Positions 12,909-30,224 of a stretch of 64,000 nt of DNA are shown here, one piece after another. The DNA lies in the NCBI GenBank assembly GCA_963667175.2, contig CAXXXF010000002.1, positions 256,001 through 320,000 of the forward strand. The letters are read 5' to 3'. Both the position numbers and the translations under genes were made by a program. Under the pieces are notes generated by a model that saw only the letters and a program-made list of their open reading frames with translations, was not told the origin of the DNA and did no database searches. Every line of letters starts with the position of its first letter. Positions within the stretch are counted from its first letter, which is position 1. The DNA comes from Candidatus Latescibacterota bacterium (lineage in GTDB: Bacteria > Latescibacterota > UBA2968 > GCA-2709665).

Positions 12909-14961
12909 ACGCAGAAATCTTTGATGCCGAAAGGCGTTGAGCACTTCGAATGAGAATGACTCCACACGAAAAGATCATGAACGCAGAAATCTTTGATGCC
13001 GAAAGGCGTTGAGCACAAAGAAACATCGAAGACGTCCAGGCAAATGACCTTGACGCAGAAATCTTTGATGCCGAAAGGCGTTGAGCACGGGAATGTCATT
13101 GTGGATCGGCAGTGGTTGGTGTATACGCAGAAATCTTTGATGCCGAAAGGCGTTGAGCACTCGATCGGTTCGCCGTCGATCCAGATCCGGCGCGCCAGAC
13201 GCAGAAATCTTTGATGCCGAAAGGCGTTGAGCACCCGTTGCCTGTTCCACTGCGCTCCCCTTTCGCTGCCTACGCAGAAATCTTTGATGCCGAAAGGCGT
13301 TGAGCACCGCTCAGGAAGTCGATTGGCAACGTCGTAGAAGCACGCAGAAATCTTTGATGCCGAAAGGCGTTGAGCACAAGAACATCCAGTCCGCGTATCA
13401 GCACGATACATACGCAGAAATCTTTGATGCCGAAAGGCGTTGAGCACTTGCGCCTCTGCTGGTCCAGCCGCTGGCTCGTGAAGCACGCAGAAATCTTTGA
13501 TGCCGAAAGGCGTTGAGCACCTGGTTGCGCGTTCGCGGATCACACGCCAGGCCCGCCGACGCAGAAATCTTTGATGCCGAAAGGCGTTGAGCACATGGGA
13601 GTGGGCAAGAGGACAGCCCACCCCCATCACACGCAGAAATCTTTGATGCCGAAAGGCGTTGAGCACATACCGAGGGCATTCGCCGCTTCTCTTCCTGCGA
13701 GGTTACGCAGAAATCTTTGATGCCGAAAGGCGTTGAGCACAAGACATCTGGAATTTGAGCGGATTGACGCGGGCGACGCAGAAATCTTTGATGCCGAAAG
13801 GCGTTGAGCACTATCAGACGACGGCCGGCTCGAACACCTTTCCGAACGACGCAGAAATCTTTGATGCCGAAAGGCGTTGAGCACAGGAAAAATCAAATGT
13901 CTTTGTAATGAATGGTGGATACGCAGAAATCTTTGATGCCGAAAGGCGTTGAGCACTATCAGGAATTCAAGGAGCGATTTCTTGTCAATCAACGCAGAAA
14001 TCTTTGATGCCGAAAGGCGTTGAGCACAATGATGCAACACCCGGCGCAACAGGGGGAAGTTGCAAACGCAGAAATCTTTGATGCCGAAAGGCGTTGAGCA
14101 CATCATGGTTGTTCCCCTTGTATGTGTTTGTTGCGCTACGCAGAAATCTTTGATGCCGAAAGGCGTTGAGCACGCTTTAGCTGATGGTTCCCGTAGATGG
14201 GTAGAGATTGACGCAGAAATCTTTGATGCCGAAAGGCGTTGAGCACTCCGATTGCCAGTAGACAATCGACGGCGTTTCGATAACGCAGAAATCTTTGATG
14301 CCGAAAGGCGTTGAGCACTCACAATCGCGGCTGCCGGCGAATCGATCGGCTCGACGCAGAAATCTTTGATGCCGAAAGGCGTTGAGCACGTTAAGAGTTC
14401 GCGGAAAGCCTGCTTGGCCGCCACGCAGAAATCTTTGATGCCGAAAGGCGTTGAGCACCCGCGATCAACCTGGAAAACCGGCTGCGGGTCGACGCAGAAA
14501 TCTTTGATGCCGAAAGGCGTTGAGCACTTAGTTGTGTGGCAAGGGAATAAGCCCAAGCCCGAACGCAGAAATCTTTGATGCCGAAAGGCGTTGAGCACAT
14601 TGATTGCGAATTTCCACTTGATGCCCGCATCTTCGACGCAGAAATCTTTGATGCCGAAAGGCGTTGAGCACGTAAACAGCCTGGAAGATCATCCAGAATC
14701 AATACACTACGCAGAAATCTTTGATGCCGAAAGGCGTTGAGCACTCCGATTGCCAGTAGACAATCGACGGCGTTTCGATAACGCAGAAATCTTTGATGCC
14801 GAAAGGCGTTGAGCACGACCGCCCGCAGTTGCAGGACGGTGTCGCGCAGATCGACGCAGAAATCTTTGATGCCGAAAGGCGTTGAGCACAACCCACATCG
14901 CACACCATCTGTGCCTTTGTTGCCGACGCAGAAATCTTTGATGCCGAAAGGCGTTGAGCAC
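12909..14961 (+). CRISPR. CRISPR array: 29 repeats and 28 spacers (repeat A)
   Basis: 36-bp ACGCAGAAATCTTTGATGCCGAAAGGCGTTGAGCAC with 33-38 nt spacers; spacers 19 and 26 are identical. Confidence 0.98.
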
Positions 14962-14998
14962 CCAATGACCATGGCTTGTTCGATAGTGGGGTGAAATC

Positions 14999-15562
14999 TT
15001 GACGCAAAAGGAAATCATCGCACGTCGCCCAAGGCTCAAAGTTCCGGATGAATTTCAGGATGAATGGGTGACTTTGGCCGACGTCGGGTTCGACGGGGAG
15101 TGGGTATCGCCGATTCAGAAGAAATCGAACAGCAGGAAAGGTCCGGTACTCGTAGCGAAACACTGGTTCGATGCGGAATCCGTGAATCTGAATCGAAAAG
15201 TCCTCGAGTGCTTCGGGTATCTGCCCGGCAATCCGTTCAACCGCGCACTTGACCGGGTTCTTGCGTCTGTCGGTCTTGAGCGTGGGGACGTCTACATCAC
15301 GCAGGCGTGCCACTTCCTGCCGAAGAACGACAAGCGGAAGAGAGTGCCGTCCAAATTGATGAAGCTTTCCGTGGAGACGGTGACCCGCCATGAAGTTGAG
15401 GGTCGGCGGGTGATCGCCTTGGGTGGCGAGGCACAGATGGCCTTGACGCGTGCCAATATTGGCTTCCTGCCGTGCCCGCATCCGAGTTCATCGGTCGCTG
15501 GACGATTCGAGGAATTGGCAGAAGCGCTTCGCGATTCGGCGCCGTTCGTCAGCGCCAGTTAG
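14999..15562 (+). CDS. Uracil-DNA glycosylase superfamily protein
   Basis: DVYITQACHFLP, RRVIALGGEA and PHPS motifs; paralog at 20777. Confidence 0.7.
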   Translation: MTQKEIIARRPRLKVPDEFQDEWVTLADVGFDGEWVSPIQKKSNSRKGPVLVAKHWFDAESVNLNRKVLECFGYLPGNPFNRALDRVLASVGLERGDVYITQACHFLPKNDKRKRVPSKLMKLSVETVTRHEVEGRRVIALGGEAQMALTRANIGFLPCPHPSSSVAGRFEELAEALRDSAPFVSAS

Positions 15563-15564
15563 TG

Positions 15565-15772
15565 ATCTCCCCTCGCTTCGGCGGCCTGCCTGCGCAGCGG
15601 TGTGCGCTGCAGGCAGGGGGGAGCGGATTGAAACCTCTCCCCGATCCCGTCCTACGGATGCCGGTTGTCGTATCTCCCCTCGCTTCGGCGGCGGGAGCGG
15701 ATTGAAACTTGTGTGAGATGTCCTCAGGACAGTCGAGGCAGGATCTCCCCTCGCTACGGCGGGGGGAGCGGA
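15565..15772 (+). CRISPR. Mini-array of a second repeat family (repeat B): 3 repeats, 2 spacers
   Basis: ATCTCCCCTCGCTTCGGCGGCGGGAGCGGATTGAAAC (37 bp) at 15672-15708; the copy at 15565-15634 has a 33-bp insert and the copy at 15743 is degenerate; spacers are 37 and 34 nt. Confidence 0.85.
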
Positions 15773-15804
15773 ATTCCTTTAAAGGAACAAGAGGGAGTCA
15801 ACAC

Positions 15805-16740
15805 ATTAGGCGAATCGTACTCAGCCGCAAGGGATTCGACTCGAGCCGCAAGGGATTGGAATCGCCGAACGGCGGCGTGCCCAGTCCCATTTTCCCGGAC
15901 GGTCGAATCCTTTCCTTGCCTATTCCGACTCCCAGGCGCTATCCTCAATCTTCGAAACGGTTTGACGACATTGTGTGGGATGGTAGATCGCTATCTCCGC
16001 TCGTGGAGAGTCTTAGTAAAGTTAGAGGTGAGTGTTGGTGCCACTTGGATCCGGATATTCGAGCAGATGCGATCCAACGGCAACCTGGATGGCGGCCGGC
16101 GTTCGGACAGGTTGATGGATCTCAATCCCAATTGGCCAATCAGGAAGTCTCTCAGGGCGACCTGTTCCTGTTTTTTGGTACATTCCGGCGTGTCGAAGAT
16201 GATGGCAGTGGAGGTTGGCGTTACGTCAGAACCGCACCGAAAGTCCATATGCTTTTTGGCTGGTTACAAGTGCAGGAGGTTTTGTCGTTTCGTACTAATG
16301 CCGACTACGACCGGGCACTTTGCAAGTATCCGTGGCTGTCGGACCACCCACATCTCCACAGATCATTTACGGAACGTGCCCACAGTCTTCGCAAGCTTCC
16401 GAACAACACCGTCTACCTGTCGAACCCGAAGCTCAATATACGGGGAATAGACCTACCGGGAGGTGGCGTATTTCAGAGTGAACACGGCCGTATCGTATTG
16501 ACTGATCCAGAGGAGGTTGGAAAAGGAGCACCCTGTCGGCCTTCGTACTGGAGGCTGCCCGAGTGGTTCTGGCCGGACAGCGATTATCGCCGGTTACGAC
16601 GCAAAGTCATGTTGCGGCGGCGCGACACGGAGTGGATCCATGTCGCCTCGGGAGGTAGGGGACAGGAGTTCGTAGTTGACGTACACGACGTCTCAGATGC
16701 CGCAAACAAGTGGGTGCGCAATCTGTTCGAAGATGCTTGA
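15805..16740 (+). CDS. Nmad3-like (nucleotide-modification-associated) protein
   Basis: IVLSRKGFDS..GGVPSPIFPDG..LSLPIP, CHLDPD, GDLFLFFG; start uncertain (ATT at 15805 after an SD, or in-frame TTG/ATG inside the mini-array). Confidence 0.7.
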   Translation: MRRIVLSRKGFDSSRKGLESPNGGVPSPIFPDGRILSLPIPTPRRYPQSSKRFDDIVWDGRSLSPLVESLSKVRGECWCHLDPDIRADAIQRQPGWRPAFGQVDGSQSQLANQEVSQGDLFLFFGTFRRVEDDGSGGWRYVRTAPKVHMLFGWLQVQEVLSFRTNADYDRALCKYPWLSDHPHLHRSFTERAHSLRKLPNNTVYLSNPKLNIRGIDLPGGGVFQSEHGRIVLTDPEEVGKGAPCRPSYWRLPEWFWPDSDYRRLRRKVMLRRRDTEWIHVASGGRGQEFVVDVHDVSDAANKWVRNLFEDA

Positions 16741-16767
16741 GCGGCACCAAGAGTCCGAGAGGTCGCG

Positions 16768-16803
16768 GCGCAGAAATCTTTGATGCCGAAAGGCGTTGAG
16801 CAC
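16768..16803 (+). CRISPR. Solitary repeat A
   Basis: 35/36 match to the array repeat, 1.8 kb downstream of the array. Confidence 0.92.
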
Positions 16804-16957
16804 GTGATAAAAGAGGCGAGTTGCGATTCTTGGCGATGCAGGCGTCTGGAATTTGAGGGATTGTAGTGGGTGATAGATCGTCTTTCCTGTGGAGTTTACC
16901 GTTCAATAAGAATCAGTCGATCCACGCAATGCAGTCTTAGTGATAAGGGGGGAGCCA

Positions 16958-17116
16958 ATGTCGACACACAAGCTGGAGATCGTACAGGTACTGGAAAAGT
17001 ATCCTGACGGGGCGCTGGTCGAGGAGTTGATGAAAGAAAGGCGGCGGATAAGGAAGTCCGAGACCGGATTGACGCTGCTCGCGTTTTTGCCCGCCAGTGG
17101 GACATCGTACGGGTAG
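16958..17116 (+). CDS. Small hypothetical protein (52 aa), possibly a remnant
   Basis: GGGGGAG SD then ATG; MSTHKLEIVQVLEKYPDGALVEELMKE... Confidence 0.4.
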   Translation: MSTHKLEIVQVLEKYPDGALVEELMKERRRIRKSETGLTLLAFLPASGTSYG

Positions 17117-17198
17117 ACCATTGTACTTTTCAACTGATGCTGTGAATTGGCAGGTGCGTCACCGTTAGGTAACCATGCACAGGTATTGTGCCCACTAA

Positions 17199-17286
17199 GG
17201 AGCGGTTTGAAATATCAAAACTCCAATGCAGGTGTTCAGTGACCCGTGGGAAATCGAGAATCTTCCATCAGAACAAGGATTGAAAA
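17199..17286 (+). CRISPR. Hybrid unit: repeat-B 3' remnant, 36-nt spacer, repeat C
   Basis: GGAGCGGTTTGAAAT, a spacer 30/36 identical to 23565-23600, then ...GAGAATCTTCCATCAGAACAAGGATTGAAA. Confidence 0.7.
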
Positions 17287-17503
17287 TACCCGTGGACAGG
17301 GTCTATTGATTCACTACAGAAGGCTTAGAAAGTACGAACGGTCTGGTTCCTGACGACGCTTTATGCTTAAAGTGCGGAGCAATCGGTTACGGTCAGTGCA
17401 CATGCCCTACACCGGCCCATTGCTGCGACTGAACGGCTCCAGGGGATCTACATTGCACCTGTGCCGTAGGACAGGGACCCGTGTGGTCAGACGAGGAGTA
17501 AAT

Positions 17504-18094
17504 ATGCTGATTTTAATTCTGCTCTCCGTGGGCTTAGCCCAGGCGGAGCTGCCAGAAGGTTTTTCTACCTGGGACTTGTCGATCAAAAAGGATCCCATCG
17601 AAGAAACGACAACTATACGGCTGACCCTGCATGGTGAGGCATTGGTGTATGTTAAGGGTCAGCGATATGGTAGAGAGTATGATCATTTTGGGGCGATCTC
17701 CTTTAGTTGTCATTTGTCCAGATATGCAAGCACAGTAGAAATGGGTGTATTGACCCATAAATCGTTCATATATGGTGTAGAGGAAGGGGACGCGGTGGAG
17801 CCAGCGTTCATGATTATGCGATATGATAGTAAAACGCCGAAGAAGATATTCGGATGGAAAACGACAAGGGTGAAAGGTCGGGATCTGCTTCTACCACCTG
17901 AGGGATTTATGAACGCATTCGTAGATACATTACGTAAAGGCGGACATTATGAATTGTTGTTAAGATCGGAATCGCCGTTTACTGGTAAGCGATGGACAAT
18001 GAAATTTAACGTCACTCACAGTAGACGAAACGTGATGAACTTTCTTAGAAAGTGTAAGGCTCACCGGAGGGATGATCACGGCTACAACTACTGA
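17504..18094 (+). CDS. Secreted hypothetical protein
   Basis: GAGGAG SD; signal peptide MLILILLSVGLAQA; lower GC. Confidence 0.7.
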   Translation: MLILILLSVGLAQAELPEGFSTWDLSIKKDPIEETTTIRLTLHGEALVYVKGQRYGREYDHFGAISFSCHLSRYASTVEMGVLTHKSFIYGVEEGDAVEPAFMIMRYDSKTPKKIFGWKTTRVKGRDLLLPPEGFMNAFVDTLRKGGHYELLLRSESPFTGKRWTMKFNVTHSRRNVMNFLRKCKAHRRDDHGYNY

Positions 18095-18188
18095 GCATTT
18101 GAATAGCGCCATATTTCTTCCTGCTCAAGCAGTTGAAGATATAGAGAAGGATGATTGGTATCGCGGACACCTGCGAACGCGCACGTAA

Positions 18189-18225
18189 CCCGTTGAGAAT
18201 CTTCCATCGGAACAAGGGTAGAAAC
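18189..18225 (+). CRISPR. Solitary repeat C
   Basis: CCCGTTGAGAATCTTCCATCGGAACAAGGGTAGAAAC. Confidence 0.7.
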
Positions 18226-18280
18226 TTGCCCAAACCAGAAAACGGGCGACAAAGTAGCTGATGGGGCTCTCTACTTAGAT

Positions 18281-18598
18281 TTGGACGGTGGAGAATTAGG
18301 CAAAACGGTCTTGTCCGTCGAAGGCGGAAACATCCGACCGTCGGATTTACAAGACCTGCAAGGGGTGTTACATTCCGATCCAGATGCCCGCCTTTCCGGT
18401 TTCCTTTCGTTGAATGAACCCACAAAGGCAATGGGAAAGGCTGTCAGTTCAGATGGACAATGGAGTTACAAGGGCGAGACCTACGACAAAATTCAGTTGC
18501 TCACCGTTCGTGACGTGGTCGACGGGAAGCGGTTGTTCCAGACGCCTACCAGCCTGAAATACAAGGATTACCACTTGCAGGAAACGATCCGGTTTTAG
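18281..18598 (+). pseudogene. C-terminal fragment of an Mrr-like restriction endonuclease domain (as found in MTase-REase fusions)
   Basis: SVEGGNIRPSDLQDLQG..GFLSLNEPTKAM..YDKIQLLTV resembles that domain; N-terminal part missing. Confidence 0.55.
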
Positions 18599-18686
18599 AT
18601 CTCCAATTCGGGAAGAAGACATATGCGACCGAATCTCGCGCAGGTCAAGTCGTTTATTCTATCCGAGTTTCCTGAGTTACTGCCAG

Positions 18687-18944
18687 ATGGCCATTGAAGA
18701 CGGATGGTCTTTTTTCTATAAAGAGATAAGAAAAGGACGCGACTCCACCCGAATCGCCCGCGTCAAGCAGGCGAGCTCAAACAGTAAAATAGATTTCAAA
18801 CCTGCTGTTACTGCCAGAATAACGGGAGATGAACGATTGAGGGTTGAGATAACAACTGACTGGGAGAACGAGATTCGCAACGTAACCGAACGGGAGTTGG
18901 AACTTTGGGAGTGCCATTTCGGGAAACAGGATTGGCAATTTTAA
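18687..18944 (+). CDS. Hypothetical protein, possibly frameshifted from an ATG near 18623
   Basis: ORF with plausible composition; a short upstream ORF has an SD-like sequence. Confidence 0.4.
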   Translation: MAIEDGWSFFYKEIRKGRDSTRIARVKQASSNSKIDFKPAVTARITGDERLRVEITTDWENEIRNVTERELELWECHFGKQDWQF

Positions 18945-18990
18945 ACCCAAAACGCACCAGCCCGTCTCTTAATTTCGTCCTGCGCGCGTG

Positions 18991-19028
18991 ATTTCCCCTC
19001 GCTTCGGCGGGGCACGAGGGATTGAAGC
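18991..19028 (+). CRISPR. Solitary degenerate repeat B
   Basis: ATTTCCCCTCGCTTCGGCGGGGCACGAGGGATTGAAGC. Confidence 0.7.
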
Positions 19029-19153
19029 TAGTCCACGGGGGCGATCCGTAAGGGTATCGGGTCGCCCCCTACGTGGTGCGTGGGCTGAAAAAGCGCCGCC
19101 ACGCTTATTTACAGGTAACCCGTTTCCACTCCATACTTCGACAAGGAGGTCCG

Positions 19154-19741
19154 ATGGACACGAGTGAATTGTACGAATTTAGCCAGGGTCTGGAGTCGCT
19201 GATCCGAAAACCGACCGATCTGCGACCCTTCGTATGTGAGGGTTCGCCTCTTGCATGTGATGCGTTCCTCGTGGGTATCAATCCCGCGAGCGAAATGTCG
19301 GATGACTTCTGGGATTTCTGGTCGGACAGTTATGGATTCGACAAGAGCGCGTGGTTTGAGAAGTACAAGGAGGAGCGAAGAACTCGCCCGCTGAAACTCG
19401 GAAGGAAGAGAAGGAATGAAGTAAGCAACACACGCAGAATCATCGAGGAGGTCGTTTTGGGCGCCAATCCCGTCAAATGTCTTGAGACGAACATATACGC
19501 GAAAGCGACGAAACAGGCATCGGACCTGGACGAGCAAAACAGAATCACGGCGCCCTTCGACTATCTCTTGCGCGAGATAGCGCCGAAGTTGGTGATTGCC
19601 CACGGCAAGGACGCTGCCGAGTACCTGCAAGCGCAGGACCTACCGTGCAAACTCAGGTGTGTCAAACATTTCCGACTCTGGTCCAAGCAGAACGCGCGAG
19701 ATCTAGGGTTGAGTATTCGCAGGTATTGTGAGGGAGAGTAG
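19154..19741 (+). CDS. Divergent UDG-superfamily protein
   Basis: FLVGINPA motif 1, LETNIY, PKLVIAHGKDA, C-terminal KHF; AGGAGG SD. Confidence 0.6.
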   Translation: MDTSELYEFSQGLESLIRKPTDLRPFVCEGSPLACDAFLVGINPASEMSDDFWDFWSDSYGFDKSAWFEKYKEERRTRPLKLGRKRRNEVSNTRRIIEEVVLGANPVKCLETNIYAKATKQASDLDEQNRITAPFDYLLREIAPKLVIAHGKDAAEYLQAQDLPCKLRCVKHFRLWSKQNARDLGLSIRRYCEGE

Positions 19742-19887
19742 CGGGACCGCGCGTGAAAACCCGCCTCGGGTTCACAGCCCATTCGCTTCGCCGGTTGACG
19801 TCCAAAGTCGCTAGGCGAGCCACGCCCGCTGAGATTCCTGCATAAGTAACGAGGTTTGACCGGAACGAAGGATGAAGGGGTCTATGG

Positions 19888-20751
19888 ATGATCAAGATAG
19901 TCAGTTGGAACATCGACAACCGAATGCAGCCGTGGTGCGAACTGGTGCGGATGGCGCAGGACGGCGAGGCCGACCTGGCGCTCCTGCAGGAAGCGGGTGG
20001 CCCGCCAGGCGACCTTGTACATCTGGTCGAATACGATGATGCGGTGTTTTGGAACCGCCAACTTTACGACCGATGGCCACTGGTCGTGAAGTTGTCCGAT
20101 CGAATAGCAGTCGAACATTACCGACAGGTGCCGCCGATCAGCGAACTTGGTATGAGCGACATTGGCGTGAGCGGTATCGGGACCATCGCCGCCGCGAGGG
20201 TGATCCCTTACGAAAGTGAAGATGAGGCCTTCGTCGCTGTCTCCATGTACGCGCGCTGGCTGAAGCCGCATCCGTCTACGGATAGCCCATGGAAAGTCGG
20301 TTACTCGGATGCGTCGGCACATCGAGTTATTTCGGACCTATCGGCTTTCATCGGTCACACCAACCCGTCCAGACACAGGATTCTGGCGGCAGGCGACCTG
20401 AACATGTTTTACGGGGCAACCGGCACGAGACTGTCACTGCCGGAACGTGAGCGCACGGTCTGGGATCGAATGAAATCGCTCGGACTGGAATTTTTGGGAC
20501 CGCAGGTTCCTTGCGGACGACCCGCACCGACTGCGCCGGACGACGTACCTTGCGATACGAAGAATGTACCGACGTACTACAAGGTTGGAGAATGCCCGGA
20601 AAAGGCGACGAATCAATTGGACTACGCATTTGCGTCGCACGGCTTCCACGAAAGGGTTTCAGTACGGGCGATGAACGAGATTTGCGAATGGGGATGCAGC
20701 GACCACTGCAGGCTGATCATTGAGGTAAAGACGAACGCCGATAGCGCCTGA
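19888..20751 (+). CDS. Endonuclease/exonuclease/phosphatase (EEP) family protein
   Basis: SWNI, DLALLQE, AGDLN, LDYAF, SDH. Confidence 0.85.
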   Translation: MIKIVSWNIDNRMQPWCELVRMAQDGEADLALLQEAGGPPGDLVHLVEYDDAVFWNRQLYDRWPLVVKLSDRIAVEHYRQVPPISELGMSDIGVSGIGTIAAARVIPYESEDEAFVAVSMYARWLKPHPSTDSPWKVGYSDASAHRVISDLSAFIGHTNPSRHRILAAGDLNMFYGATGTRLSLPERERTVWDRMKSLGLEFLGPQVPCGRPAPTAPDDVPCDTKNVPTYYKVGECPEKATNQLDYAFASHGFHERVSVRAMNEICEWGCSDHCRLIIEVKTNADSA

Positions 20752-20776
20752 CAGAGTTGCGCCACGAGGTGAAACC

Positions 20777-21316
20777 ATGGAACGAGAGGACATAATCGAA
20801 CGTCGCCGAAGCCTTCAAGTTCCGGACGAATTTCAGGATGAATGGATGACATTAGCCGACGTCGGGTTCGACGGTGAGTGGGTATCGCCAATTCAGAAGA
20901 TATCGAACAGCATGAGGGGTCCGGTACTCGTAGCAAAGCACTGGCTCGACGCCGAATCCGTGGATCTGAATCGGGAAGTCCTCGAATGCTTGGGATATTT
21001 GCCTGGCAACCGATTCAATCAGTCTCTTAATCGGGCCCTGGCAAATGTCGGGAAAGCACGTGGGGACGTCTACATTACACAGGCGTGCCACTTCCTACCG
21101 AAGGACGACAAGCGGAAGCGAGTGCCGGCCGAATTGATGAAACTTTCCGTGAAGGAGGTGACCCGCTATGAAGTTGAGGGTCGAAGGGTCATTGCGTTGG
21201 GTGGTGAGGCTCAGTTGGCCCTGGAGCGTTTCGGTATTGATTTTCTGCCGTGCGCGCATCCGAGTTCATCGGTCACTGGACGATTCGAGGAATTGGCAGA
21301 TGCGATTCGAGATTAG
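20777..21316 (+). CDS. UDG-superfamily protein (paralog of 14999)
   Basis: Colinear and highly similar to 14999-15562. Confidence 0.7.
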   Translation: MEREDIIERRRSLQVPDEFQDEWMTLADVGFDGEWVSPIQKISNSMRGPVLVAKHWLDAESVDLNREVLECLGYLPGNRFNQSLNRALANVGKARGDVYITQACHFLPKDDKRKRVPAELMKLSVKEVTRYEVEGRRVIALGGEAQLALERFGIDFLPCAHPSSSVTGRFEELADAIRD

Positions 21317-21341
21317 GCGCCGTTCGTGGGCTCTATCCCAA

Positions 21342-21451
21342 ATCTCCTCTCGCTTCAGCGGTGGGAACGGATTGAAACGCGTCGCGCCGCTCGCAGATGG
21401 AGTGGATGGCGGCGCCCAGCGAGAGCCTTCCATCAGAACAAGGATTGAGAC
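21342..21451 (+). CRISPR. Hybrid unit: repeat B, 36-nt spacer, repeat C
   Basis: B at 21342-21378 (37 nt), spacer 21379-21414, C CCCAGCGAGAGCCTTCCATCAGAACAAGGATTGAGAC at 21415-21451. Confidence 0.8.
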
Positions 21452-21456
21452 TGCTT

Positions 21457-21633
21457 ATGCCGCAAGATATCCGAAATCGACAGGAACCGGCCGCCTTCCA
21501 GGTCTGGCATCCGGATGGGACGCCCTTTTCCGATGATGACTATCGAAAGGCCGGAATGCCTGTACCAACCCCCGAGCAGATCGCTCACTGGGCTGAGATG
21601 GACCGAAGTTTCGCCGATCCGGATACTGACTGA
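21457..21633 (+). CDS. Repeat-C-linked microprotein (58 aa), copy 1
   Basis: MPQDIRNRQEPAAFQVWHPDGTP...YRKAG..PTPEQIAHWAEMD; three standalone copies plus one fused domain. Confidence 0.7.
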   Translation: MPQDIRNRQEPAAFQVWHPDGTPFSDDDYRKAGMPVPTPEQIAHWAEMDRSFADPDTD

Positions 21634-21653
21634 GGCTTGATCGGATACATCCG

Positions 21654-21689
21654 CCCAGAGAAATCGTCCATCAAAGAATGGATTGAAGC
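21654..21689 (+). CRISPR. Degenerate repeat C
   Basis: CCCAGAGAAATCGTCCATCAAAGAATGGATTGAAGC. Confidence 0.55.
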
Positions 21690-22522
21690 TGCCCAACGGG
21701 CTGCGTCCGGACGGAGGACCTGAACTTGTGACTGGCGCCAACTACGACACTCCCTGGTGGCCGCTTATATACGACCAGTGGAACGAGCGGGGCGATAGGC
21801 AGCAGACGCACCAGCGCGAGTTCCAATTCTACAGCATGCAGCTCACCGGAGAGGCGGGTCCGATCCTCGAAACGGCTTGCGGCACTGGTTCGATTCTGCT
21901 TCGCCTTTGGCGCCACGGCGTTGACATAAGGGGTTTCGATTGCGCCGCAGGGATGCTGGCCGTTCTGCGGCGCAAGGCAGCGGCTCTGGGGCTGGGCGAT
22001 ATCGACCGCCGCGTTGGCTGTCAAGACCTCGTTGACTTCTGCTACGACCAGTCCTTTGCAGCCATTCTGATTCCGGCCAGTTCGTTCATGCTCTTACCCA
22101 CACAGTCGGCCCAAATCACCTGTCTCGAACGCATTCGCGCGCATATGGCACCTGGCGGGCGGCTACTGATGAATTTCTACATCCCGTCGCTTGCCGACGA
22201 CCTGCTTGCCCACATCGCCCCGTCCCCGTCGCTGGAAACATTCGGCGAATTCATCCACCCCCAAACAGGCCGCCAAATCAGCGTCCGCTTCAAAAAGATC
22301 GTCGATCTGGGCGAGCAGACTGAGCACTACGAGTGGTTTTTTCTCTACGACGGAGAAACTGCAGCCGTGCCCATGACTGCGCGGTGGATCTACAAAGAAG
22401 AATTTCAGCTATTGCTGCGTCTGGCAGGATTTAGCCGCTGGCGGCTTTCTGGCACCCACGACGGCCAGCCGTACACAGGTTCAAAGGAGATTGGGACGAC
22501 GTACTGGGTCGTCGAACGCTGA
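21683..22522 (+). CDS. Class I SAM-dependent methyltransferase
   Basis: ILETACGTGS motif I; the true start may be GTG at 21728. Confidence 0.88.
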   Translation: MKLPNGLRPDGGPELVTGANYDTPWWPLIYDQWNERGDRQQTHQREFQFYSMQLTGEAGPILETACGTGSILLRLWRHGVDIRGFDCAAGMLAVLRRKAAALGLGDIDRRVGCQDLVDFCYDQSFAAILIPASSFMLLPTQSAQITCLERIRAHMAPGGRLLMNFYIPSLADDLLAHIAPSPSLETFGEFIHPQTGRQISVRFKKIVDLGEQTEHYEWFFLYDGETAAVPMTARWIYKEEFQLLLRLAGFSRWRLSGTHDGQPYTGSKEIGTTYWVVER

Positions 22523-22851
22523 GCGGATCAGTACCTGCAAACGGTGGTGACCGTTTGGTAAGCTGGTTAGGGTCTGCCAGCACCGTTGGTTGAAAGACGA
22601 TAGGTATTGTTCGCTACTGCATCAGGGGATACTTCAAGGCGATTCAGTTCGCCACGGCGAGACACAATCGACTGGGTTCCCTGCCTGGCCAATGCGTGAT
22701 GGCGACCCGCCGGAAATCTGGTTTCAGCTGGACAAAGGACGACCTCTCCAACATGATCGACAAGACTTTGAAGTGGGACGTGGATTGAAGCTGCTGCGGG
22801 GTTTATCCCAGGGGACGGACTGTATCACGCGACACAGGAGGAGATGACCCA

Positions 22852-23538
22852 ATGTGCGGTCGATTTACCCAGATGATGTCCTGGGGTGAGCTCCATTGGC
22901 TTTACAGCCTGTCCGAACACTCGGAATCGCTGGAGTTGCAATCCCGCTATAACGGCGCGCCGACCCAGGATTTCGCGGTCTGCCGCCTGGACGGAAACGG
23001 CAACCGGGAGATCGACAGGCTGCAATGGGGTCTGGTACCCGCGTGGTCCAAAGACGTCAGAATCGGCGCCCGCATGATCAACGCACGGGCCGAAAGCGTA
23101 CACGAGAAACCGGCATTCGGCGCCGCCTTTCGGGCGCGCCGGTGCCTGGTGCCGGCCGACGGGTGGTTCGAGTGGCAAGCAGCAGGGAGCGCCAGACAGC
23201 CCTACTTCCTGGCGCTCGCGGACGGGTCGACGCTGTCGTTCGCCGCGCTGTGGGAACGCTGGGATAGAGGCGGCGCCGCCCTGGAGTCATTTACCATCAT
23301 CACCACGGCCGCCGACGAAGCGCTTTCCAACGTCTACCATCGCCAGCCTGCCGTCATCAATCCCGAACACTTCTCCGTCTGGCTCGACAACGAATCATCC
23401 GCGGCGACGTTGCTGGATCTGGTTCGCTATCCTCGCGCGGGACCGTACGAAATACGCGCCATCGGCGCTCGCGTAAACAATGTCCGAAACGACGATCCGG
23501 ACGTTCTCCTGCCCACGTCCCAGCAGCGCCTGTTCTAA
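22852..23538 (+). CDS. SRAP/HMCES/YedK abasic-site protein
   Basis: MCGRF catalytic N-terminus, INARAES, RCLVPADGWFEW, HHRQP. Confidence 0.95.
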   Translation: MCGRFTQMMSWGELHWLYSLSEHSESLELQSRYNGAPTQDFAVCRLDGNGNREIDRLQWGLVPAWSKDVRIGARMINARAESVHEKPAFGAAFRARRCLVPADGWFEWQAAGSARQPYFLALADGSTLSFAALWERWDRGGAALESFTIITTAADEALSNVYHRQPAVINPEHFSVWLDNESSAATLLDLVRYPRAGPYEIRAIGARVNNVRNDDPDVLLPTSQQRLF

Positions 23539-23546
23539 GTCCACAC

Positions 23547-23637
23547 GGGAGAGCGGATTGAAACGACAAAACACCAGTGCCGGTGGTCAGTGACCCGTGG
23601 CCCAGTGAGAGTCTTCCATCAGAAAAAGGATTGAGAC
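23547..23637 (+). CRISPR. Hybrid unit: repeat-B 3' half, 36-nt spacer, repeat C
   Basis: GGGAGAGCGGATTGAAAC, spacer 23565-23600, then CCCAGTGAGAGTCTTCCATCAGAAAAAGGATTGAGAC. Confidence 0.75.
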
Positions 23638-23642
23638 TGCCT

Positions 23643-23837
23643 ATGCCGCAAGATATCAGAAATCGCCAGGAGCCCGCCGCCTTCCAGTGCTGGCATCCGG
23701 ACGGTACCCCTTACTCGCCGGCAGACTATCGAAAGGCCGGGATGCCTGTCCCGACCCCCGAGCAGATCGCCCACTGGGCTGAGATGGACCGAATATTCGC
23801 CGATCCGGTGAGAATTGTCAATCAGAACAAGAAGTGA
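23643..23837 (+). CDS. Repeat-C-linked microprotein, copy 2
   Basis: Near-identical to 21457; the stop codon lies inside the downstream degenerate repeat C. Confidence 0.7.
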   Translation: MPQDIRNRQEPAAFQCWHPDGTPYSPADYRKAGMPVPTPEQIAHWAEMDRIFADPVRIVNQNKK

Positions 23838-23912
23838 AACAGCGAATCCGTCCCAATCCTCGCCTGGACGATCGATGTCTCCCCTCGCTTCGGCCGGGGA
23901 GCGGATTGAAAC
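23804..23912 (+). CRISPR. Hybrid unit: degenerate repeat C, 36-nt spacer, repeat B
   Basis: TCCGGTGAGAATTGTCAATCAGAACAAGAAGTGAAAC, spacer 23841-23876, then GTCTCCCCTCGCTTCGGCCGGGGAGCGGATTGAAAC. Confidence 0.7.
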
Positions 23913-23991
23913 GTCGCCGCAATGTCCCCGCGCCCTTGTGAAAAGGCGAAGTCGACGGGGCGGTACGTGGCGCCAATGGAGGTGAATAACA

Positions 23992-25257
23992 ATGCTATTC
24001 AGACTTACTCGAGATGGAGATAAGAACGGTTTTCAGCCATATGTCGAAACGTCAGCATCAGACTTGCAACTCACCGAAAAGAACCTGGAAACCTGGATGG
24101 CGCTGCACCCTGAGTTGCTTTTTGGAAGCGAGCAAGTCCTTGTGATCAGCCAGTCAGTCGCAGGTCAGAGCATGGGCGACATTCTGGCGTTAGACGCCGA
24201 TGGATGTTTAGTGATCGTCGAGATTAAGCGGGACTGGTCCGATAGAGCGACGGTTGGCCAAATCCTGGAATATGCGGCCGAAATGACCGGGAAATGTTAT
24301 GAGGACCTGGAGAAACTGCATCACAGCTACTGGATCAAACAACACTCGAATTGTAATTATGCATCCTTGCTGACGCGGTTTCAAACCCTGACCGACAACC
24401 ACGAATGTGATGAGGACGATATTCCGAGACGTCAAAAAGGTCATCGAATTCTAGTCGTCGCACCGGCTGCTGACGAGGGCCTGATGAGGATTGTAGAGTG
24501 GCTTAGAGAGTATGGTGTGCCGATCAGCTTTGTGCCTTTCACGATCCATGCAGATACGGAAAGCAAAGACATCTTGCTGGAGCTAGAGCCGCTCCCCGAG
24601 GCTCAGTCGTTCGGAGAAATGGTAGACAGTCAGGAATGGCGTGGAGATTGGATCTTTAATACGAACGAAACTTACGCCCCAGGCGCATACCGAAAGATGT
24701 TTGATCAACGCGTAATTGCTATCCACGGATATGAGAGCGGTCCAGCCAATCTGACAGGTAGTGCCGAAGGGCAGCGGGTATTCGCTTATGTAAATCGCAA
24801 AGGTGTCCTGGCGGTGGGTCGTATCGTTAACGGCCAACCGGTTTCGGGGACAACCGTGTTTGGCGAGGAACGCGAGTTCCATGTGAAGGTCGTCTGGGAG
24901 ACAATCGTGGACGATGACAGGGGAATGACATTACGGGACGTCAGCGAAGAAAAAGGTTACAATCTCCCTGTTCGATGTGTCTTTGCTCGCATGAATCGTC
25001 CCGATGCCGCCGATTGGATCGCCGACGAACTGCAAAGCAGGATGGATAAACGTAATCCTGGACGTAGAGGCTCAAGATTCTCAGACCCTATCGTCGGCCG
25101 CGCCTGGCATGCCGACGGCACGCCTTTTGGTGAGGAAGACTACAGGAGAGCGGGCTTGTATGTCCCCACCGAGGAACAATTGGCCGCGTGGGAGAAGGCG
25201 GATGCCGAACGCGACGCGCTACCGCCCGGTGAGAATCTACCGCCAGAACAGGAATGA
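23992..25257 (+). CDS. NucS/EndoMS-like PD-(D/E)xK nuclease with a putative PUA/EVE-like domain and a C-terminal microprotein domain
   Basis: EKNLETW, DILALD..LVIVEIKR..VGQILEYA; FAYVNRKGVLAVGRI; C-terminal WHADGTP..DYRRAG..PTEEQLAAW. Confidence 0.75.
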   Translation: MLFRLTRDGDKNGFQPYVETSASDLQLTEKNLETWMALHPELLFGSEQVLVISQSVAGQSMGDILALDADGCLVIVEIKRDWSDRATVGQILEYAAEMTGKCYEDLEKLHHSYWIKQHSNCNYASLLTRFQTLTDNHECDEDDIPRRQKGHRILVVAPAADEGLMRIVEWLREYGVPISFVPFTIHADTESKDILLELEPLPEAQSFGEMVDSQEWRGDWIFNTNETYAPGAYRKMFDQRVIAIHGYESGPANLTGSAEGQRVFAYVNRKGVLAVGRIVNGQPVSGTTVFGEEREFHVKVVWETIVDDDRGMTLRDVSEEKGYNLPVRCVFARMNRPDAADWIADELQSRMDKRNPGRRGSRFSDPIVGRAWHADGTPFGEEDYRRAGLYVPTEEQLAAWEKADAERDALPPGENLPPEQE

Positions 25258-25260
25258 AGC
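25225..25260 (+). CRISPR. Degenerate repeat C overlapping the nuclease stop codon
   Basis: CCCGGTGAGAATCTACCGCCAGAACAGGAATGAAGC. Confidence 0.55.
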
Positions 25261-25404
25261 AGCAGTGGTCGGTGGTCCGTGTCAGTGACCAGTCCGAAAG
25301 CCGGATGATGTACGGGAAGGTGCATGCGCGCCTGCGGATGCCGGCTTCCAGCTCAATTCCGTGGGTCTTCAAAGCCGAAATGAATCCGGGGAGGCAGGGA
25401 AACC

Positions 25405-26277
25405 ATGAAAATCGTTTTCAGTCGCAAGGGATTCGACTCGACCCGCAGGAGATCTGAATCGCCGAACGGCGGCGTGCCCAGTCCCATCTTTCCGGACGGC
25501 GCCGCCCTGTCCCTGCCAATTCCGCAACACGGAAGTCGGACGCGCTACGGGGACGTACAGTGGCGCGGCGAGTCGATCGGTCCGATTGTGGAGTGCTTGA
25601 CTGAGGGTCGAGTGAAGCAAGGTGATTGTTGCCATCTCGACCCCGATCTGAACGCCGATGCCCTTGCGCGCTTGCCCGGATGGCGGCCGGCCTTCGGGCA
25701 GTCACAGGCCGCTCAGAGCCATCTGAAAAACGAGGGTGTCGAACCCGGGGACCTCTTTCTGTTCTTCGGCTGGTTCCGCGCCGTGGAACCCGGCAAAGGA
25801 GGCATGTGGCGGTACGTTTCAGACGCCCGGGACGTACACAGGCTGTTCGGTTGGCTCCAGGTTTCCGAGGTCGTGCCCGTCGGGGCGGATCTCGCCCGCG
25901 CCCGGTCCGAGCGGCCGTGGCTATCCAGGCATCCGCATCTGAATAGGGATAGGGACAACAACACGATCTACATCGCAAGGGAGAAACTTGACGTCGAGGG
26001 CGTGACTGCGCGGAGCGACGCAGGCCTGTTTTCCGGCAACGGCGACCGATTCACACTGACGGCGCCGGGTTCCAGGACCCGCTCCAATTGGCGGTTGCCT
26101 TGGTGGTTCTATCCCTCAAACGGTCGTCCAACGCTCAGCTACCACGGCAATGGGGATCGCTGGCAGCACGCGAAACCGTGGGTATACCTGGACACGGTCG
26201 GCATCGGGCAGGAGTTCGTGTTCGACGCCGGCGGGATCCCGGAAGCAAACGTCTGGTTGCGAGAACTGTTCAGGTGA
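25405..26277 (+). CDS. Nmad3-like protein
   Basis: MKIVFSRKGFDS, CHLDPD, GDLFLFFGWF, GQEFV. Confidence 0.75.
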   Translation: MKIVFSRKGFDSTRRRSESPNGGVPSPIFPDGAALSLPIPQHGSRTRYGDVQWRGESIGPIVECLTEGRVKQGDCCHLDPDLNADALARLPGWRPAFGQSQAAQSHLKNEGVEPGDLFLFFGWFRAVEPGKGGMWRYVSDARDVHRLFGWLQVSEVVPVGADLARARSERPWLSRHPHLNRDRDNNTIYIAREKLDVEGVTARSDAGLFSGNGDRFTLTAPGSRTRSNWRLPWWFYPSNGRPTLSYHGNGDRWQHAKPWVYLDTVGIGQEFVFDAGGIPEANVWLRELFR

Positions 26278-26588
26278 AGGGTTGTGCCGAGTATCGGCAG
26301 ACGGAACAGAAAGGCATCGCTGGAAATCTCGGCGGGAGAACAGATATGCGGCGAAGCAACGAAAAGCGCAATCGTCTTGCTGCACTCGCCCGCCATCTCC
26401 GGGACAATGTTCCATCCGGATTCCGGGGGGCGGCGACTATCATTCGGGCGTTTATGAATGCGGATTCGTATCGCCGTATACAAAGTTGGCAGGCAATCTA
26501 CACGCATGTGTCGCAAATTGCGACACATGCCAGCACCTGCGTCGTTCGTTGGCGCATTCGCTGCCAACAAACAGGCCGCACGGTACCC

Positions 26589-26616
26589 GTAGGGGCGACC
26601 GGCCGGTCGCCCCTAC
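26589..26616. repeat. GTAG-type REP palindrome; related copies near 19036, 27512, 30201, 32648, 36591 and 37527
   Basis: GTAGGGGCGACCGGCCGGTCGCCCCTAC. Confidence 0.8.
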
Positions 26617-26721
26617 GCTGCCAGAGGCTCGATGGAAAGCCTAAATCCGATCCGCCGGAGGACCTCAGGCGTGAGGTCGCGGCCGGCATGATCGCGGCAG
26701 GGGAGATGTTTGAATCGAAAT

Positions 26722-27054
26722 CTATGTAAGGTTCAGCCAACTTTGCAGAGAAGCGATCAAAGTCGTCTGATCATTTTGCGCGAGGGATCCGATTTTCTTG
26801 AAAATCAGCTTCTGATGAATCGTATAGATGCCTCGTTTGACGGCAGACGCAACGTTGAGTCCCGATTCCGTCCACTTGTCGAGCACGAACTCGCCAGGTA
26901 ATAGATCTGTTATTCTGCTGGTTAGCGGAACAATGAAAACATCCTGAGAAACATGGAGCGTGCTCACAATGATGGCCGGACGCACTTTGGAATCCTGCAA
27001 GTCAACAAACGGATATCGGACGAGTACGACGTCATTCTCCAAGTAAACGGACAT
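26722..27054 (-). CDS. PemK/MazF-family toxin
   Basis: DVVLVRYPF.D...KVRPAIIVS..VPLTS. Confidence 0.88.
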   Translation of the reverse strand: MSVYLENDVVLVRYPFVDLQDSKVRPAIIVSTLHVSQDVFIVPLTSRITDLLPGEFVLDKWTESGLNVASAVKRGIYTIHQKLIFKKIGSLAQNDQTTLIASLQSWLNLT

Positions 27055-27232
27055 ATACATCGTCCTCATTATTGTCCCAAACTTGCTTCAGGGCATCCTG
27101 GCTGGCTTCGTGCCAGAACGAATCATCATCGGGCAAAATCGTAACCAATACTCTTTTCCCTTCGGGCAACGCAATGCGTTCGAGGGTTTCAATTTTTCCA
27201 TCTTTCACGATCCCCATTGCGGTGCTGAGCAT
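27032..27232 (-). CDS. Putative cognate antitoxin
   Basis: Small acidic ORF overlapping the toxin start; GKIETLERIALPEG..VWDNNEDDVY. Confidence 0.7.
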   Translation of the reverse strand: MLSTAMGIVKDGKIETLERIALPEGKRVLVTILPDDDSFWHEASQDALKQVWDNNEDDVYVRLLGE

Positions 27233-27535
27233 GAACAACTCCTTTTCGATTCTTCACGTGCCTATTCCGGTACCAATATGCTCTTGACGTTGTAGCGGTA
27301 GCTATTGATGCTCTGGGCAGCTATCGACCGGTCCTTCAGTCCGTCGAACAAGATATAGCCAACATTCCGGCGAAAAGCAACTGCTTTGACACGACAATGC
27401 GTGCAAAACCAAAATCTCCTCGGCGCATGAAGTACTTCACGGTAGAAATCGTTGTGGTTGCCTGAAAGTTTACGTACCGCGCGTGAATCGGACTGGCGCC
27501 CGCGGCGCCGGTCCGGCGCGAACGGCCGGTCGCCC

Positions 27536-27846
27536 CTACTGCTCTGCCAGGGGCTCGATGGAAAGCCTGAATCCGAGGCTGTTCAGGATCTTCTCCATCG
27601 TGTCAAGGCGAGGATTTCCGTCTCCCGAGAGCGTCCTGTACAGGTGAGCCCGGTTTAGATTCGCCTGCCGCGCCAACTTTCCCAGCCCGCCTCTTGCCGT
27701 CGCAACGTCCTTCAGAGCCAGCAGAAGGACGGTTCGATCCCTGTCTCTGGCGTATTCCTCCAGCGCGACCTCGAGGTAGGCGCGAGCGCGGTCCGGATCA
27801 CTGAGGAATTCGAAATGGTGTTTTTCGAACGATACGGAGGCTTCAT
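27536..27846 (-). pseudogene. Addiction-module antidote (HTH, HI1420-like), frameshifted near the start
   Basis: 1-nt deletion after codon 3 relative to the copy at 32672-32983. Confidence 0.65.
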
Positions 27847-28011
27847 CAGGAACGCTCCTTCTGTAGACTTCGGGAGCTTGTTGGCGCACTTGGCAGGAGG
27901 ACTTGCGCCGTCACCCGAAACCAACGCGACGGAATCGTCGCGATACATCCTTTCCGGATCGCCAGGTGTGTGTCGGCAACCTGCGTATCTAAAGGCCTCG
28001 CACGCGGAAAA

Positions 28012-29895: not shown

Positions 29896-29929
29896 ACTCC
29901 TACCGCTTTCCCCCTCGACTTTTCAGCCA

Positions 29930-30173: not shown

Positions 30174-30224
30174 CGGGTTGTGCCCTGGCCCCGGGTACCT
30201 GTAGGGGCGACCGGCCGGTCGCCC

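Follow-up and report, generated by a model that had tools for sequence, protein, structure and literature searches.

The window analysed here is a stretch of 64,000 nucleotides (nt) from contig CAXXXF010000002.1 of Candidatus Latescibacterota bacterium, and all coordinates below count from its first letter. It contains a type I-B (Myxan) CRISPR-cas locus and, on the trailer side of the CRISPR array, a variable island of ~21 kb, whose array-proximal half (14999-26277) is the subject of this analysis. This half carries genes for three UDG-fold proteins, two Nmad3 proteins, an EEP-superfamily enzyme, an SRAP protein and a candidate defence nuclease (PDC-S11). The source contig stretch opens with two identical IS110 copies, followed by a + strand type I-B (Myxan) cas operon in the order Cas6, Cas3, Cas8a1/Csx13, Cas7, Cas5 and a Cas4-Cas1 fusion. 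The cassette row begins at 14999, which is 30 nt past the final R1 repeat of the array, and all sizeable open reading frames (ORFs) from there to 26277 are on the + strand. The island is built of co-oriented, mostly single-gene cassettes separated by solitary or paired copies of two further CRISPR repeats, R2 and R3. The array and the genes of main interest are as follows:

12909..14968, + strand, R1 CRISPR array of type I-B (Myxan), 29 copies of a 36-nt repeat with a period of ~72
14999..15562, + strand, UDGa, 187 aa (Pfam UDG 36.2 bits, cut-off 24.3)
15709..16740, + strand, Nmad3a (Pfam Nmad3 193.7 bits, cut-off 27, match from residue 35)
19154..19741, + strand, UDGb, 195 aa, unannotated UDG-fold family (G-[I/F]-N-P-A, invariant Asn43 and His172)
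19888..20751, + strand, EEP-superfamily nuclease/phosphatase, 287 aa (Pfam 28.9 bits, cut-off 24.5)
20777..21316, + strand, UDGc, paralogue of UDGa (Pfam UDG 28.9 bits, cut-off 24.3)
22852..23538, + strand, SRAP (YedK/HMCES family, PF02586; Pfam 216.8 bits over profile 1-214)
23992..25257, + strand, PDC-S11 candidate defence nuclease, 421 aa (PADLOC E 1.5e-29, residues 28-285)
25405..26277, + strand, Nmad3b, 290 aa (Pfam Nmad3 256.5 bits, cut-off 27)
29751-30173 and 31633-32379, further Nmad3 copies or fragments (Pfam)

R2 and R3 are each 37 nt long and distinct from the resident R1; R2 is a hairpin repeat, R3 is weakly structured, and each has a ATTGAAAC-type tail at its end. Solitary repeat copies were counted by a Hamming scan at an identity to the reference of at least 22/37. 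The + strand of the island holds nine R3 copies, R2 at seven sites (one split by an insertion) and one solitary R1, and no copy on the minus strand of the island scores above 21/37. Within 14999-26277, 15 of the 16 solitary repeats are of the R2 or R3 type and one is of the resident R1 type; given the position of this R1 copy (16768..16803), UDGa, the R2 mini-array and Nmad3a lie between two copies of R1. The copies in the array-proximal half are the following:

15565..15779, + strand, R2 mini-array of three repeats and two spacers (15565-15634, split; 15672-15708; 15743-15779, degenerate)
16768..16803, + strand, solitary R1 repeat, 35/36 identical
17250..17286, + strand, solitary R3 repeat, 30/37 to the reference copy
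18189..18225, + strand, solitary R3 repeat, 31/37
18991..19027, + strand, solitary degenerate R2 repeat, 26/37
19825..19861, + strand, degenerate R3 repeat at the junction of the UDGb and EEP homology blocks, 22/37
21342..21451, + strand, hybrid mini-array (R2 21342-21378, 36-nt spacer, R3 21415-21451)
21653..21689, + strand, degenerate R3 overlapping the start of the listed methyltransferase ORF, 24/37
23528..23637, + strand, R2 tail and R3 pair (R2 tail 23528-23564, 36-nt conserved spacer, R3 23601-23637)
23804..23913, + strand, R3 and R2 pair (R3 23804-23840, read as a small-protein C-terminus; R2 23877-23913)
25225-25261, + strand, R3-derived sequence entered by the PDC-S11 reading frame

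The spacer within the pair at 23528..23637 is homologous to 17214-17249. In the split R2 copy at 15565-15634, the hairpin loop is interrupted by an inserted palindrome of ~33 nt. A search of the whole genome with exact 12-mers from six mini-array spacers gave a chance-level scatter of self-targets. The search of the whole 5.52-Mb genome found no R2 or R3 array, and the sole R3 outside the window lies on contig C3 (~320278-320951, locus L005), ~400 nt 5' of the sole outside Nmad3 fragment. R3 was found in 13 of 168 genomes of the phylum, all of one family; within the sister genus set, 11 of 14 genomes have it. Four sister genomes carry true R3 arrays (36 to 80 copies, period ~74), and long R2 arrays occur in three sister loci (L022, L027, and L029).

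Sister loci and cassette turnover

Ten loci of the genus were compared with the window by a Pfam scan of 124 ORFs, a PADLOC scan of 100 proteins and tblastn of the window proteins. In each of the ten, the stretch downstream of the array (taken in repeat orientation) is dotted with co-oriented, degenerate copies of R3 and R2 that have genes between them, and in one it also holds an R1 copy. The same kinds of cargo recur, with Nmad3 in six of the ten loci, EEP (two kinds) in seven and UDG-like genes in four (UDGb-like in three and UDGa-like in two). Other cargo includes DUF4432 in four loci, a ParA-like pair in three, and MazF and helix-turn-helix (HTH) modules. The PADLOC matches in the sister loci comprise a complete Azaca system (ZacA, ZacB, and ZacC), a further ZacA, HEC-05 in two genomes, PDC-S37/Hhe, PDC-S11, a GajB-like helicase and a WYL regulator, with the following regions assigned by PADLOC:

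L024 3280-9520, Azaca
L026 14337-16292, HEC-05
L027 12176-13996, HEC-05
L023 127-4270, frameshifted PDC-S37/Hhe

Because the same slots of the sister loci hold Nmad3, EEP and UDG genes as well as Azaca, HEC-05, PDC-S37 and PDC-S11, the locus is, by association, a variable defence island.

Cassettes of this island are gained, lost, duplicated and re-ordered at the R2 and R3 repeats. Homology to the sister genomes is mosaic: a UDGb block (19154-19848) and an EEP block (19824-20742) are found separately in different genomes, and the two blocks meet on the degenerate R3 at 19825-19861. L021 has UDGb but no EEP, L023 and L025 have EEP but no UDGb, and in L026 UDGb precedes EEP as it does here. A block 3' of Nmad3a in the window sits 5' of Nmad3a in L026, and the UDGa-like genes of L024 and L028 have different upstream neighbours. 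In contigs of four public metagenome runs, compared at a likeness of at least 90%, 17285 is joined to 23654 (in two runs), 19752/19754 to the earlier 17256/17266 (in two runs, of which one has pieces nearly identical to the window) and 25235 to the earlier 23612. Every one of these joints falls in or beside an R3 copy. As such joints may stem from relatives or from repeats, they count as weak support for turnover at the repeats.

The SRAP gene is an instructive example of an ORF-sized unit. The copy at 22852-23538, which bears out the SRAP assignment of the first-pass annotation and has the N-terminus Met-Cys-Gly-Arg-Phe with Cys2 present, is the only one in the assembly. SRAP is single-copy in 14 of 15 genomes of the genus and lies ~1 Mb from the CRISPR locus in sister genomes, the closest sister (G052) gave no SRAP match, and the ancestral SRAP site maps to the end of contig C8. 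DNA homology to the sister genomes (22834-23540) sets in 14-18 nt ahead of the ATG and stops with the stop codon. The cassette SRAP is 74-78% identical to the sister SRAPs, which are 86-97% alike among themselves, and a flanking core gene reaches 95% identity with the two nearest sisters. Since the homology ends at or close to the ORF borders and the divergence exceeds that of the core gene, the SRAP gene is regarded as a divergent, ORF-sized acquisition.

The first-pass annotation had described the cargo as converging on modified-base recognition and abasic-site chemistry. The clustering behind this description holds and exceeds chance, with all six Pfam-Nmad3 matches of the 5.52-Mb genome adjoining R3-type repeats and five of them lying in the island. 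The independence of the converging genes is overstated, given the identity between UDGa and UDGc (77%) and between Nmad3b and the truncated Nmad3c of the distal half (75%).

The resident R1 array contains an internal duplication, in which a two-spacer segment occurs at 14211-14337 and again at 14709-14835 (93% over 127 nt), so that repeat-mediated recombination appears to have taken place within the array itself.

UDG-fold and Nmad3 proteins

The UDG fold that the first-pass annotation had proposed for three proteins is confirmed, for UDGb by a structure model (pLDDT 94) whose best structural match is the family 4 UDG of S. tokodaii, and for UDGa and UDGc by Pfam matches above the cut-off. The three are not all independent, as UDGa and UDGc are paralogues. 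On their alignments, the three proteins fall into two unrelated families, UDGa/UDGc and UDGb, which are treated as separate because hhalign of the two alignments gave a probability of 2%. Searches against solved structures returned nothing significant, either with the UDGa and UDGb profiles or with the sequences of UDGa, UDGb, Nmad3b, EEP and PDC-S11. Two of the six Pfam-UDG matches of the genome sit in this locus, and high-scoring canonical UDGs are encoded elsewhere in the genome.

UDGs carry two characteristic motifs, namely a water-activating loop of the form G-x-x-P-x with Asp, Glu or Asn (motif 1) and a His-Pro-Ser-type loop for DNA intercalation (motif 2). The UDGa/c family is rare (63 clusters among 5.8 billion proteins), and its alignment agrees with the earlier proposal of a non-canonical first motif: motif 1 is replaced by A-K-H-W, of which W56 and the following D58 are invariant and K and H are variable. 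The residues invariant among 31 aligned members include G48, P49, W56, D58, Q102, H105 and P162. The central Y-I-T-Q..H and the C-terminal H-P-S are kept and can be made out by comparison with family 4 enzymes, with P162 invariant and S163 nearly so. The Pfam UDG match of UDGa does not reach the replaced motif-1 region. UDGa also has weak NCBIfam matches to family 4/UdgX, and 28 of the 38 sub-significant matches of its profile to the PDB are to family 4 or UdgX. The UDGb family is more widespread, with 258 clusters across many phyla. Among 62 UDGb sequences, G41, N43, P44, A45 and H172 are invariant and R174, W176 and S177 are nearly invariant, and we take the combination of an Asn-type G-x-N-P-A with the motif-2 His to be as in SMUG1-type enzymes. 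Because the Asn of motif 1 and the His of motif 2 are kept, UDGb is the stronger glycosylase candidate. By analogy, the UDG-fold proteins of both families are probably monofunctional glycosylases for non-canonical bases.

Brig1 and Brig2 are reported as single-gene anti-phage DNA glycosylases with a UDG fold (Hossain et al. 2024, PMC11078745; Getz et al. 2025, bioRxiv 10.1101/2025.10.29.685425), and integron cassettes are reported in the second of these studies as carrying defence glycosylases, namely the UDG-like Brig2 and the Dag glycosylases. UDGb resembles Brig1 and Brig2 in being a small, stand-alone UDG-fold protein that is very divergent in sequence and has defence genes around it. The S. 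tokodaii family 4 UDG that best matches its structure model is also the one given for Brig1 (PMC11078745), and no chain named Brig1 is present among the structural matches listed. UDGb differs by its Asn-type G-x-N-P-A and motif-2 His, and UDGa/c by the loss of the canonical first motif. The cassette boundaries also differ, being CRISPR repeats here in place of attC sites.

Outside this locus, 73 UDGb loci from many phyla were collected; 40 of them, outside the genus and with full flanks, were chosen, and the neighbours were examined in 38 of these. None of the UDGb loci outside the genus contains a relative of EEP, Nmad3 or UDGa, and a linkage of EEP with UDG or of Nmad3 with UDG beyond the genus was accordingly discarded for these loci. 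One of them (L054) has an SRAP relative. UDGb homologues also adjoin a TIR-domain gene in Mesorhizobium (L049), an OLD-family AAA_15/TOPRIM gene in Variovorax (L055), and a 1781-aa DEAD/MZB/DUF559 helicase gene in a Burkholderiales metagenome-assembled genome (L033).

The Nmad3 assignments of the first-pass annotation are borne out by full-length Pfam matches far above the cut-off. The listed ORF of Nmad3a reads through the mini-array's last R2 copy, and the true start is probably near 15805, where the family-conserved N-terminus begins. The structure model of Nmad3b (pLDDT 92) appears to have a PUA-like core of the modified-base-reader kind according to a wider structure search, and Foldseek of this model against the PDB gave no match at E ≤ 1e-3. 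Nmad3 is a large family (>6,000 homologues at E ≤ 1e-5). Across 65 aligned homologues, the Nmad3b residues D11, H77, D79, D81, H145, H176 and H178 are invariant, and this His/Asp set suggests a catalytic activity beyond mere base reading. Nmad3 would probably recognise, and perhaps process, a flipped modified base, sometimes alongside GmrSD-type nucleases.

The neighbourhoods of Nmad3 bear on this association. In L026 and L027, the orthologues of Nmad3a are directly followed by genes for HEC-05, which is of the GmrSD-type, modification-dependent family. Among 36 Nmad3b-like metagenome loci, chosen from 80 for having flanks, Nmad2 is adjacent in ten, the defence or mobile-element neighbours include MmeI, HsdR, ThsB-TIR, NERD and nSTAND, and one locus (L187) has Nmad3 between two GmrSD_N genes and an MTES_1575 helicase gene. 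Nmad2 gave no match in the genome of the Latescibacterota bacterium, but the control genomes gave none either. Judging from its model, Nmad3 (PF18754) appears to share the PUA-like core of nuclease-fused readers of modified bases (EVE, ASCH and YTH domains; McrB-N, VcaM4I and PD-T4-3), and it is repeatedly adjacent to GmrSD-type genes. The proteins encoded here differ in being stand-alone (250-340 aa), with no nuclease domain and no Nmad2 partner, and in their invariant Asp/His set. To our knowledge, the function of Nmad3 has been tested nowhere, and a full-text search for the name gave only an unrelated paper, so that no literature on its function was found. In the DefensePredictor report, NMAD and UDG domains are among the predicted, unvalidated systems, and NMAD also appears in a figure legend of validated systems.

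Nucleases and other cargo

The EEP gene lies 25 nt 5' of UDGc, in agreement with its earlier placement directly upstream of a UDG, and 146 nt 3' of UDGb, all on the same strand. Its translation carries S-W-N, L-Q-E, G-D-L-N and S-D-H, which we take to be the catalytic motifs of EEP proteins. The protein matches no NCBIfam model, and its PDB relatives at E ≤ 1 comprise only chance-level matches. Orthologues are present in L023, L025 and L026.

The protein encoded at 23992..25257 had been read as a NucS-like nuclease, and this reading was given up. The match to NucS_C (18.9 bits over 73 residues) is below the cut-off of 24 and that to the NCBIfam NucS model (25.7 bits) is below the cut-off of 216, and the protein instead matches the PADLOC candidate system PDC-S11. 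The N-terminal part is a NucS_C-like PD-(D/E)XK domain. The protein differs from PDC-S11 by a C-terminal fusion, as its last ~55 residues are a copy of a small-protein module (internal tblastn) with the motif at residues ~366-404. An orthologue split in two ORFs occupies the same slot of L020.

The remaining genes of the row are the following:

17363..18094, + strand, unknown protein whose start at Met48 (17504) resembles a signal peptide
18281..18598, + strand, C-terminal remnant of a Mod-type DNA methyltransferase, 105 aa (tblastn)
21457..21633, + strand, 58-aa small protein, starting 5-6 nt after R3 (more copies at 23643-23837 and 36191-36361)
21683..22522, + strand, class-I S-adenosylmethionine (SAM) methyltransferase (Pfam Methyltransf_25, 41.1 bits)

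The class-I assignment of the SAM methyltransferase stands, and the role in DNA modification that its mention among the DNA-directed cargo implied is not supported. The protein matches only generic class-I Pfam models, and its best NCBIfam match is to a methyltransferase of the daptide type, a class of ribosomally synthesized and post-translationally modified peptides (RiPPs), at 67.8 bits against a cut-off of 175. The other NCBIfam matches are to corrinoid-associated and small-molecule types, all below cut-off, and a PADLOC match to mad2 is weak (26 bits). The gene is strain-specific, with no full orthologue in 14 sister genomes, and judging from these profile matches the enzyme is not of a DNA-methylase family. 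The Mrr-like fragment of the first-pass annotation, at 18281-18598, has no Pfam match at E ≤ 5. Because it aligns to the C-terminal end (last ~100 residues) of an annotated 486-aa Mod adenine methylase (95% of the query, 43.6% identity, E 3e-19), it is a remnant of a DNA methyltransferase gene. The unknown protein at 17363-18094 has no Pfam, PADLOC or PHROG match and is strain-specific, being found weakly in one of the 14 sister genomes.

The small protein belongs to a family with the motif W-H-P-D-G-T-P ... D-Y-R-K-A-G ... P-V-P-T. Another R3 often follows the gene, copies are sometimes in tandem, and in two cases the reading frame enters an R3. Across the window and the ten sister loci, 23 copies were found by tblastn, and 36 representative clusters, mostly of 55-95 aa, were found among 1.8 billion proteins; there was no Pfam match and no usable Protein Atlas match. 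In the search of the cargo proteins against PHROGs phage families, SRAP gave the sole match. Promoter and terminator consensus scans gave counts at the level of shuffled sequence (11 vs 8.1 ± 2.9 and 16 vs 14.8 ± 3.9).

The distal half of the island (26300-36150) has different repeated boundaries, in the form of three ~300-nt copies at 27494-27793, 30183-30482 and 32630-32929, and of a palindromic, GC-rich element that occurs near 26564, 30176, 32623 and 36566. Its cargo comprises two MazF-like genes, antitoxin/HTH genes, a DUF2335 gene, an Nmad3 fragment and the truncated Nmad3c. The far border of the island, which is conserved in the sister loci, is formed by an S51 peptidase and a large ASH-domain protein. 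At the other end of the locus, the two IS110-family transposase genes (805-2145 and 2455-3795) are in tandem, have identical Pfam scores and lie directly 5' of cas6.

Interpretation of the island

The folds (a probable one in the case of Nmad3), the family memberships, the island context and the turnover of cassettes at the repeats are established by observation. The reading that we favour, and consider somewhat more probable than its negation, is that of a variable defence island in which independent base-flipping enzymes and DNA-cutting effectors are carried as cassettes at foreign repeats. The cargo is taken to be accessory, given the canonical UDGs elsewhere in the genome, the R3 repeats beside all six Nmad3 matches and the divergence of the cassette SRAP. 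The stand-alone UDG-fold and Nmad3 proteins, which dominate the cargo of the array-proximal half, would act on a base flipped out of DNA, either reading or excising it. The analogy of Brig1 and Brig2 suggests that each glycosylase-like protein would act alone, removing a non-canonical base from phage DNA, and the abasic sites left in modified phage DNA would stall phage replication. The nucleases (EEP and PDC-S11) and SRAP would act independently or, at most, opportunistically on abasic phage DNA. SRAP might shield single-stranded abasic sites of the host or trap those of the phage, although this is speculation. It is by analogy, too, that we infer glycosylase activity, specificity for modified bases and an anti-phage effect.

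Several observations weigh against this reading. The support for an anti-phage or enzymatic activity of the UDG, Nmad3 and EEP families consists of sequence, structure model and context, and none of the UDGs, Nmad3 or EEP is covered by a PADLOC model. UDGa and UDGc are without a canonical catalytic residue in motif 1. Outside the genus, the genes next to UDGb are for the most part ordinary ones, with a transposase, integrase, toxin-antitoxin or defence-type gene among the four nearest ORFs in only 13 of the 38 UDGb loci; defence or mobile-element neighbours were found in 12 of the 36 Nmad3 metagenome loci. Nothing links the methyltransferase, the secreted protein or the small proteins to DNA bases, and the multiplicity of UDGa/c and Nmad3 is partly due to local duplication. 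Moreover, decay is visible in several cassettes (the Mod remnant, the Nmad3 fragments, the truncated Nmad3c, and the split PDC-S11 and PDC-S37 of the sister loci), so that some of the island content may be junk.

This last point is at the core of one alternative, in which repeat-mediated recombination at the decaying trailer end of the array trapped and duplicated passing DNA, and the bias towards DNA enzymes would result from a few duplications and hitch-hiking instead of selection for defence. The paralogous duplications (UDGa/c, Nmad3b/c, and the Nmad3 fragments), the gene remnants and frameshifted genes, the trapping of a normally core SRAP gene as an ORF-sized unit, and the inclusion in the cargo of a secreted protein and of a non-DNA methyltransferase are all consistent with such an accumulation. 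It is nevertheless unlikely, as the same families recur in up to seven of the ten sister loci at 45-85% protein identity, the frames are intact, with invariant catalytic-type residues across 62 (UDGb) and 65 (Nmad3) aligned homologues, and recognised defence systems occupy the same slots. A role in host genome maintenance or self-modification, with UDG, SRAP, EEP and Nmad3 as extra repair paralogues or as parts of a host DNA-modification system, seems very improbable. SRAP and UDG are classical repair families, Nmad3 is named for an association with nucleotide modification in its Pfam description, and its pairing with Nmad2 in 10 of 36 metagenome loci would fit such a role. On the other hand, high-scoring canonical UDGs are present elsewhere in the genome, the cassette copies vary between strains, and the genes are located in a defence island. 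In addition, no TET/JBP, TGT/DpdA or glycosyltransferase was found among the island ORFs scanned, and no Nmad2 match was found in the genome (or in the controls).

The first-pass annotation had proposed a base-excision defence arsenal against modified phage DNA that would escape Cascade. In kind this agrees with the present reading of base-flipping DNA enzymes in a defence island, a context upheld by the PADLOC matches here and in the sister loci, and in form it goes too far. In its strong form, as one coordinated system with a glycosylase to make an abasic (AP) site, EEP to cleave it, SRAP to crosslink it and the methyltransferase to mark self, it fails because the gene pairing is not conserved, and we consider such a pathway decidedly unlikely. 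The chemistries of the UDG, EEP and SRAP families do meet at abasic sites, EEP is closely spaced with UDGc and UDGb on one strand, and the order of UDGb then EEP is repeated in L026. Against these points, UDGb and EEP occur apart in L021, L023 and L025, with a degenerate R3 at their junction, and different genes lie upstream of the UDGa-like genes in L024 and L028. Of the 73 UDGb loci, none beyond the genus has a relative of EEP, Nmad3 or UDGa (one, L054, has an SRAP relative). Furthermore, EEP is placed at the superfamily level, as a possible more than an assured member of the ExoIII/APE1-type AP-endonuclease branch, and the methyltransferase fits non-DNA models and has no full orthologue in the 14 sister genomes.

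The packaging of the cargo can be compared with two known arrangements. Standalone repeats, mini-arrays and cargo genes in CRISPR-cas loci have been described by Shmakov et al. 2023 (bioRxiv 10.1101/2023.03.03.530964), and the loci presented in that study share with the present one the out-of-array repeats, the two-repeat mini-arrays with conserved spacers and the shuffling cargo beside cas genes. Those loci are reported to have repeats that resemble their own array repeat and mainly toxin-antitoxin or regulator cargo between the mini-array and the cas genes, and the role proposed for them is transcriptional control by Cascade. In contrast, 15 of 16 solitary repeats are foreign to the resident array here, and the genes form a long run on the trailer side. 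The island is also similar to sedentary chromosomal integrons in its long co-oriented row of mostly single-gene, strain-variable cassettes, its short structured repeats, its enrichment in defence genes and its ORF-sized units, such as SRAP. It differs from integrons in having CRISPR repeats as boundaries and Cas4-Cas1 with a CRISPR array as the adjoining machinery. No tyrosine recombinase and no integrase domain was found among the ORFs scanned in 14999-37553, and attC sites were not searched for. In the literature searched, no description was found of gene cassettes bounded by CRISPR repeats of a foreign family. The repeat-bounded packaging of the cassettes is the more novel part of this locus, and the cargo comprises new candidates of a known kind of defence.

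A wider proposal extends the defence-island reading to the whole genus. The trailer side of the array would serve as an integron-like platform, on which foreign CRISPR repeats act as recombination boundaries, and possibly also as sites where Cas6 processes a read-through transcript, for strain-swapped single-gene effectors against modified phage bases, including two undescribed UDG-fold families and a catalytic PUA-like Nmad3. In this full form the proposal is doubtful, and we put it forward tentatively.

Anti-phage DNA glycosylases have only lately been recognised as a kind of defence, with Brig1 in 2024 and with Dag and Brig2 in 2025, and few of their families have been tested. The island of the Latescibacterota bacterium offers further candidates as compact single genes, namely the widespread and unannotated UDGb, the rare UDGa/c with its rebuilt first motif, and Nmad3. 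If the repeats that separate these genes are exchange sites, CRISPR arrays would gain a second role as platforms for gene capture.

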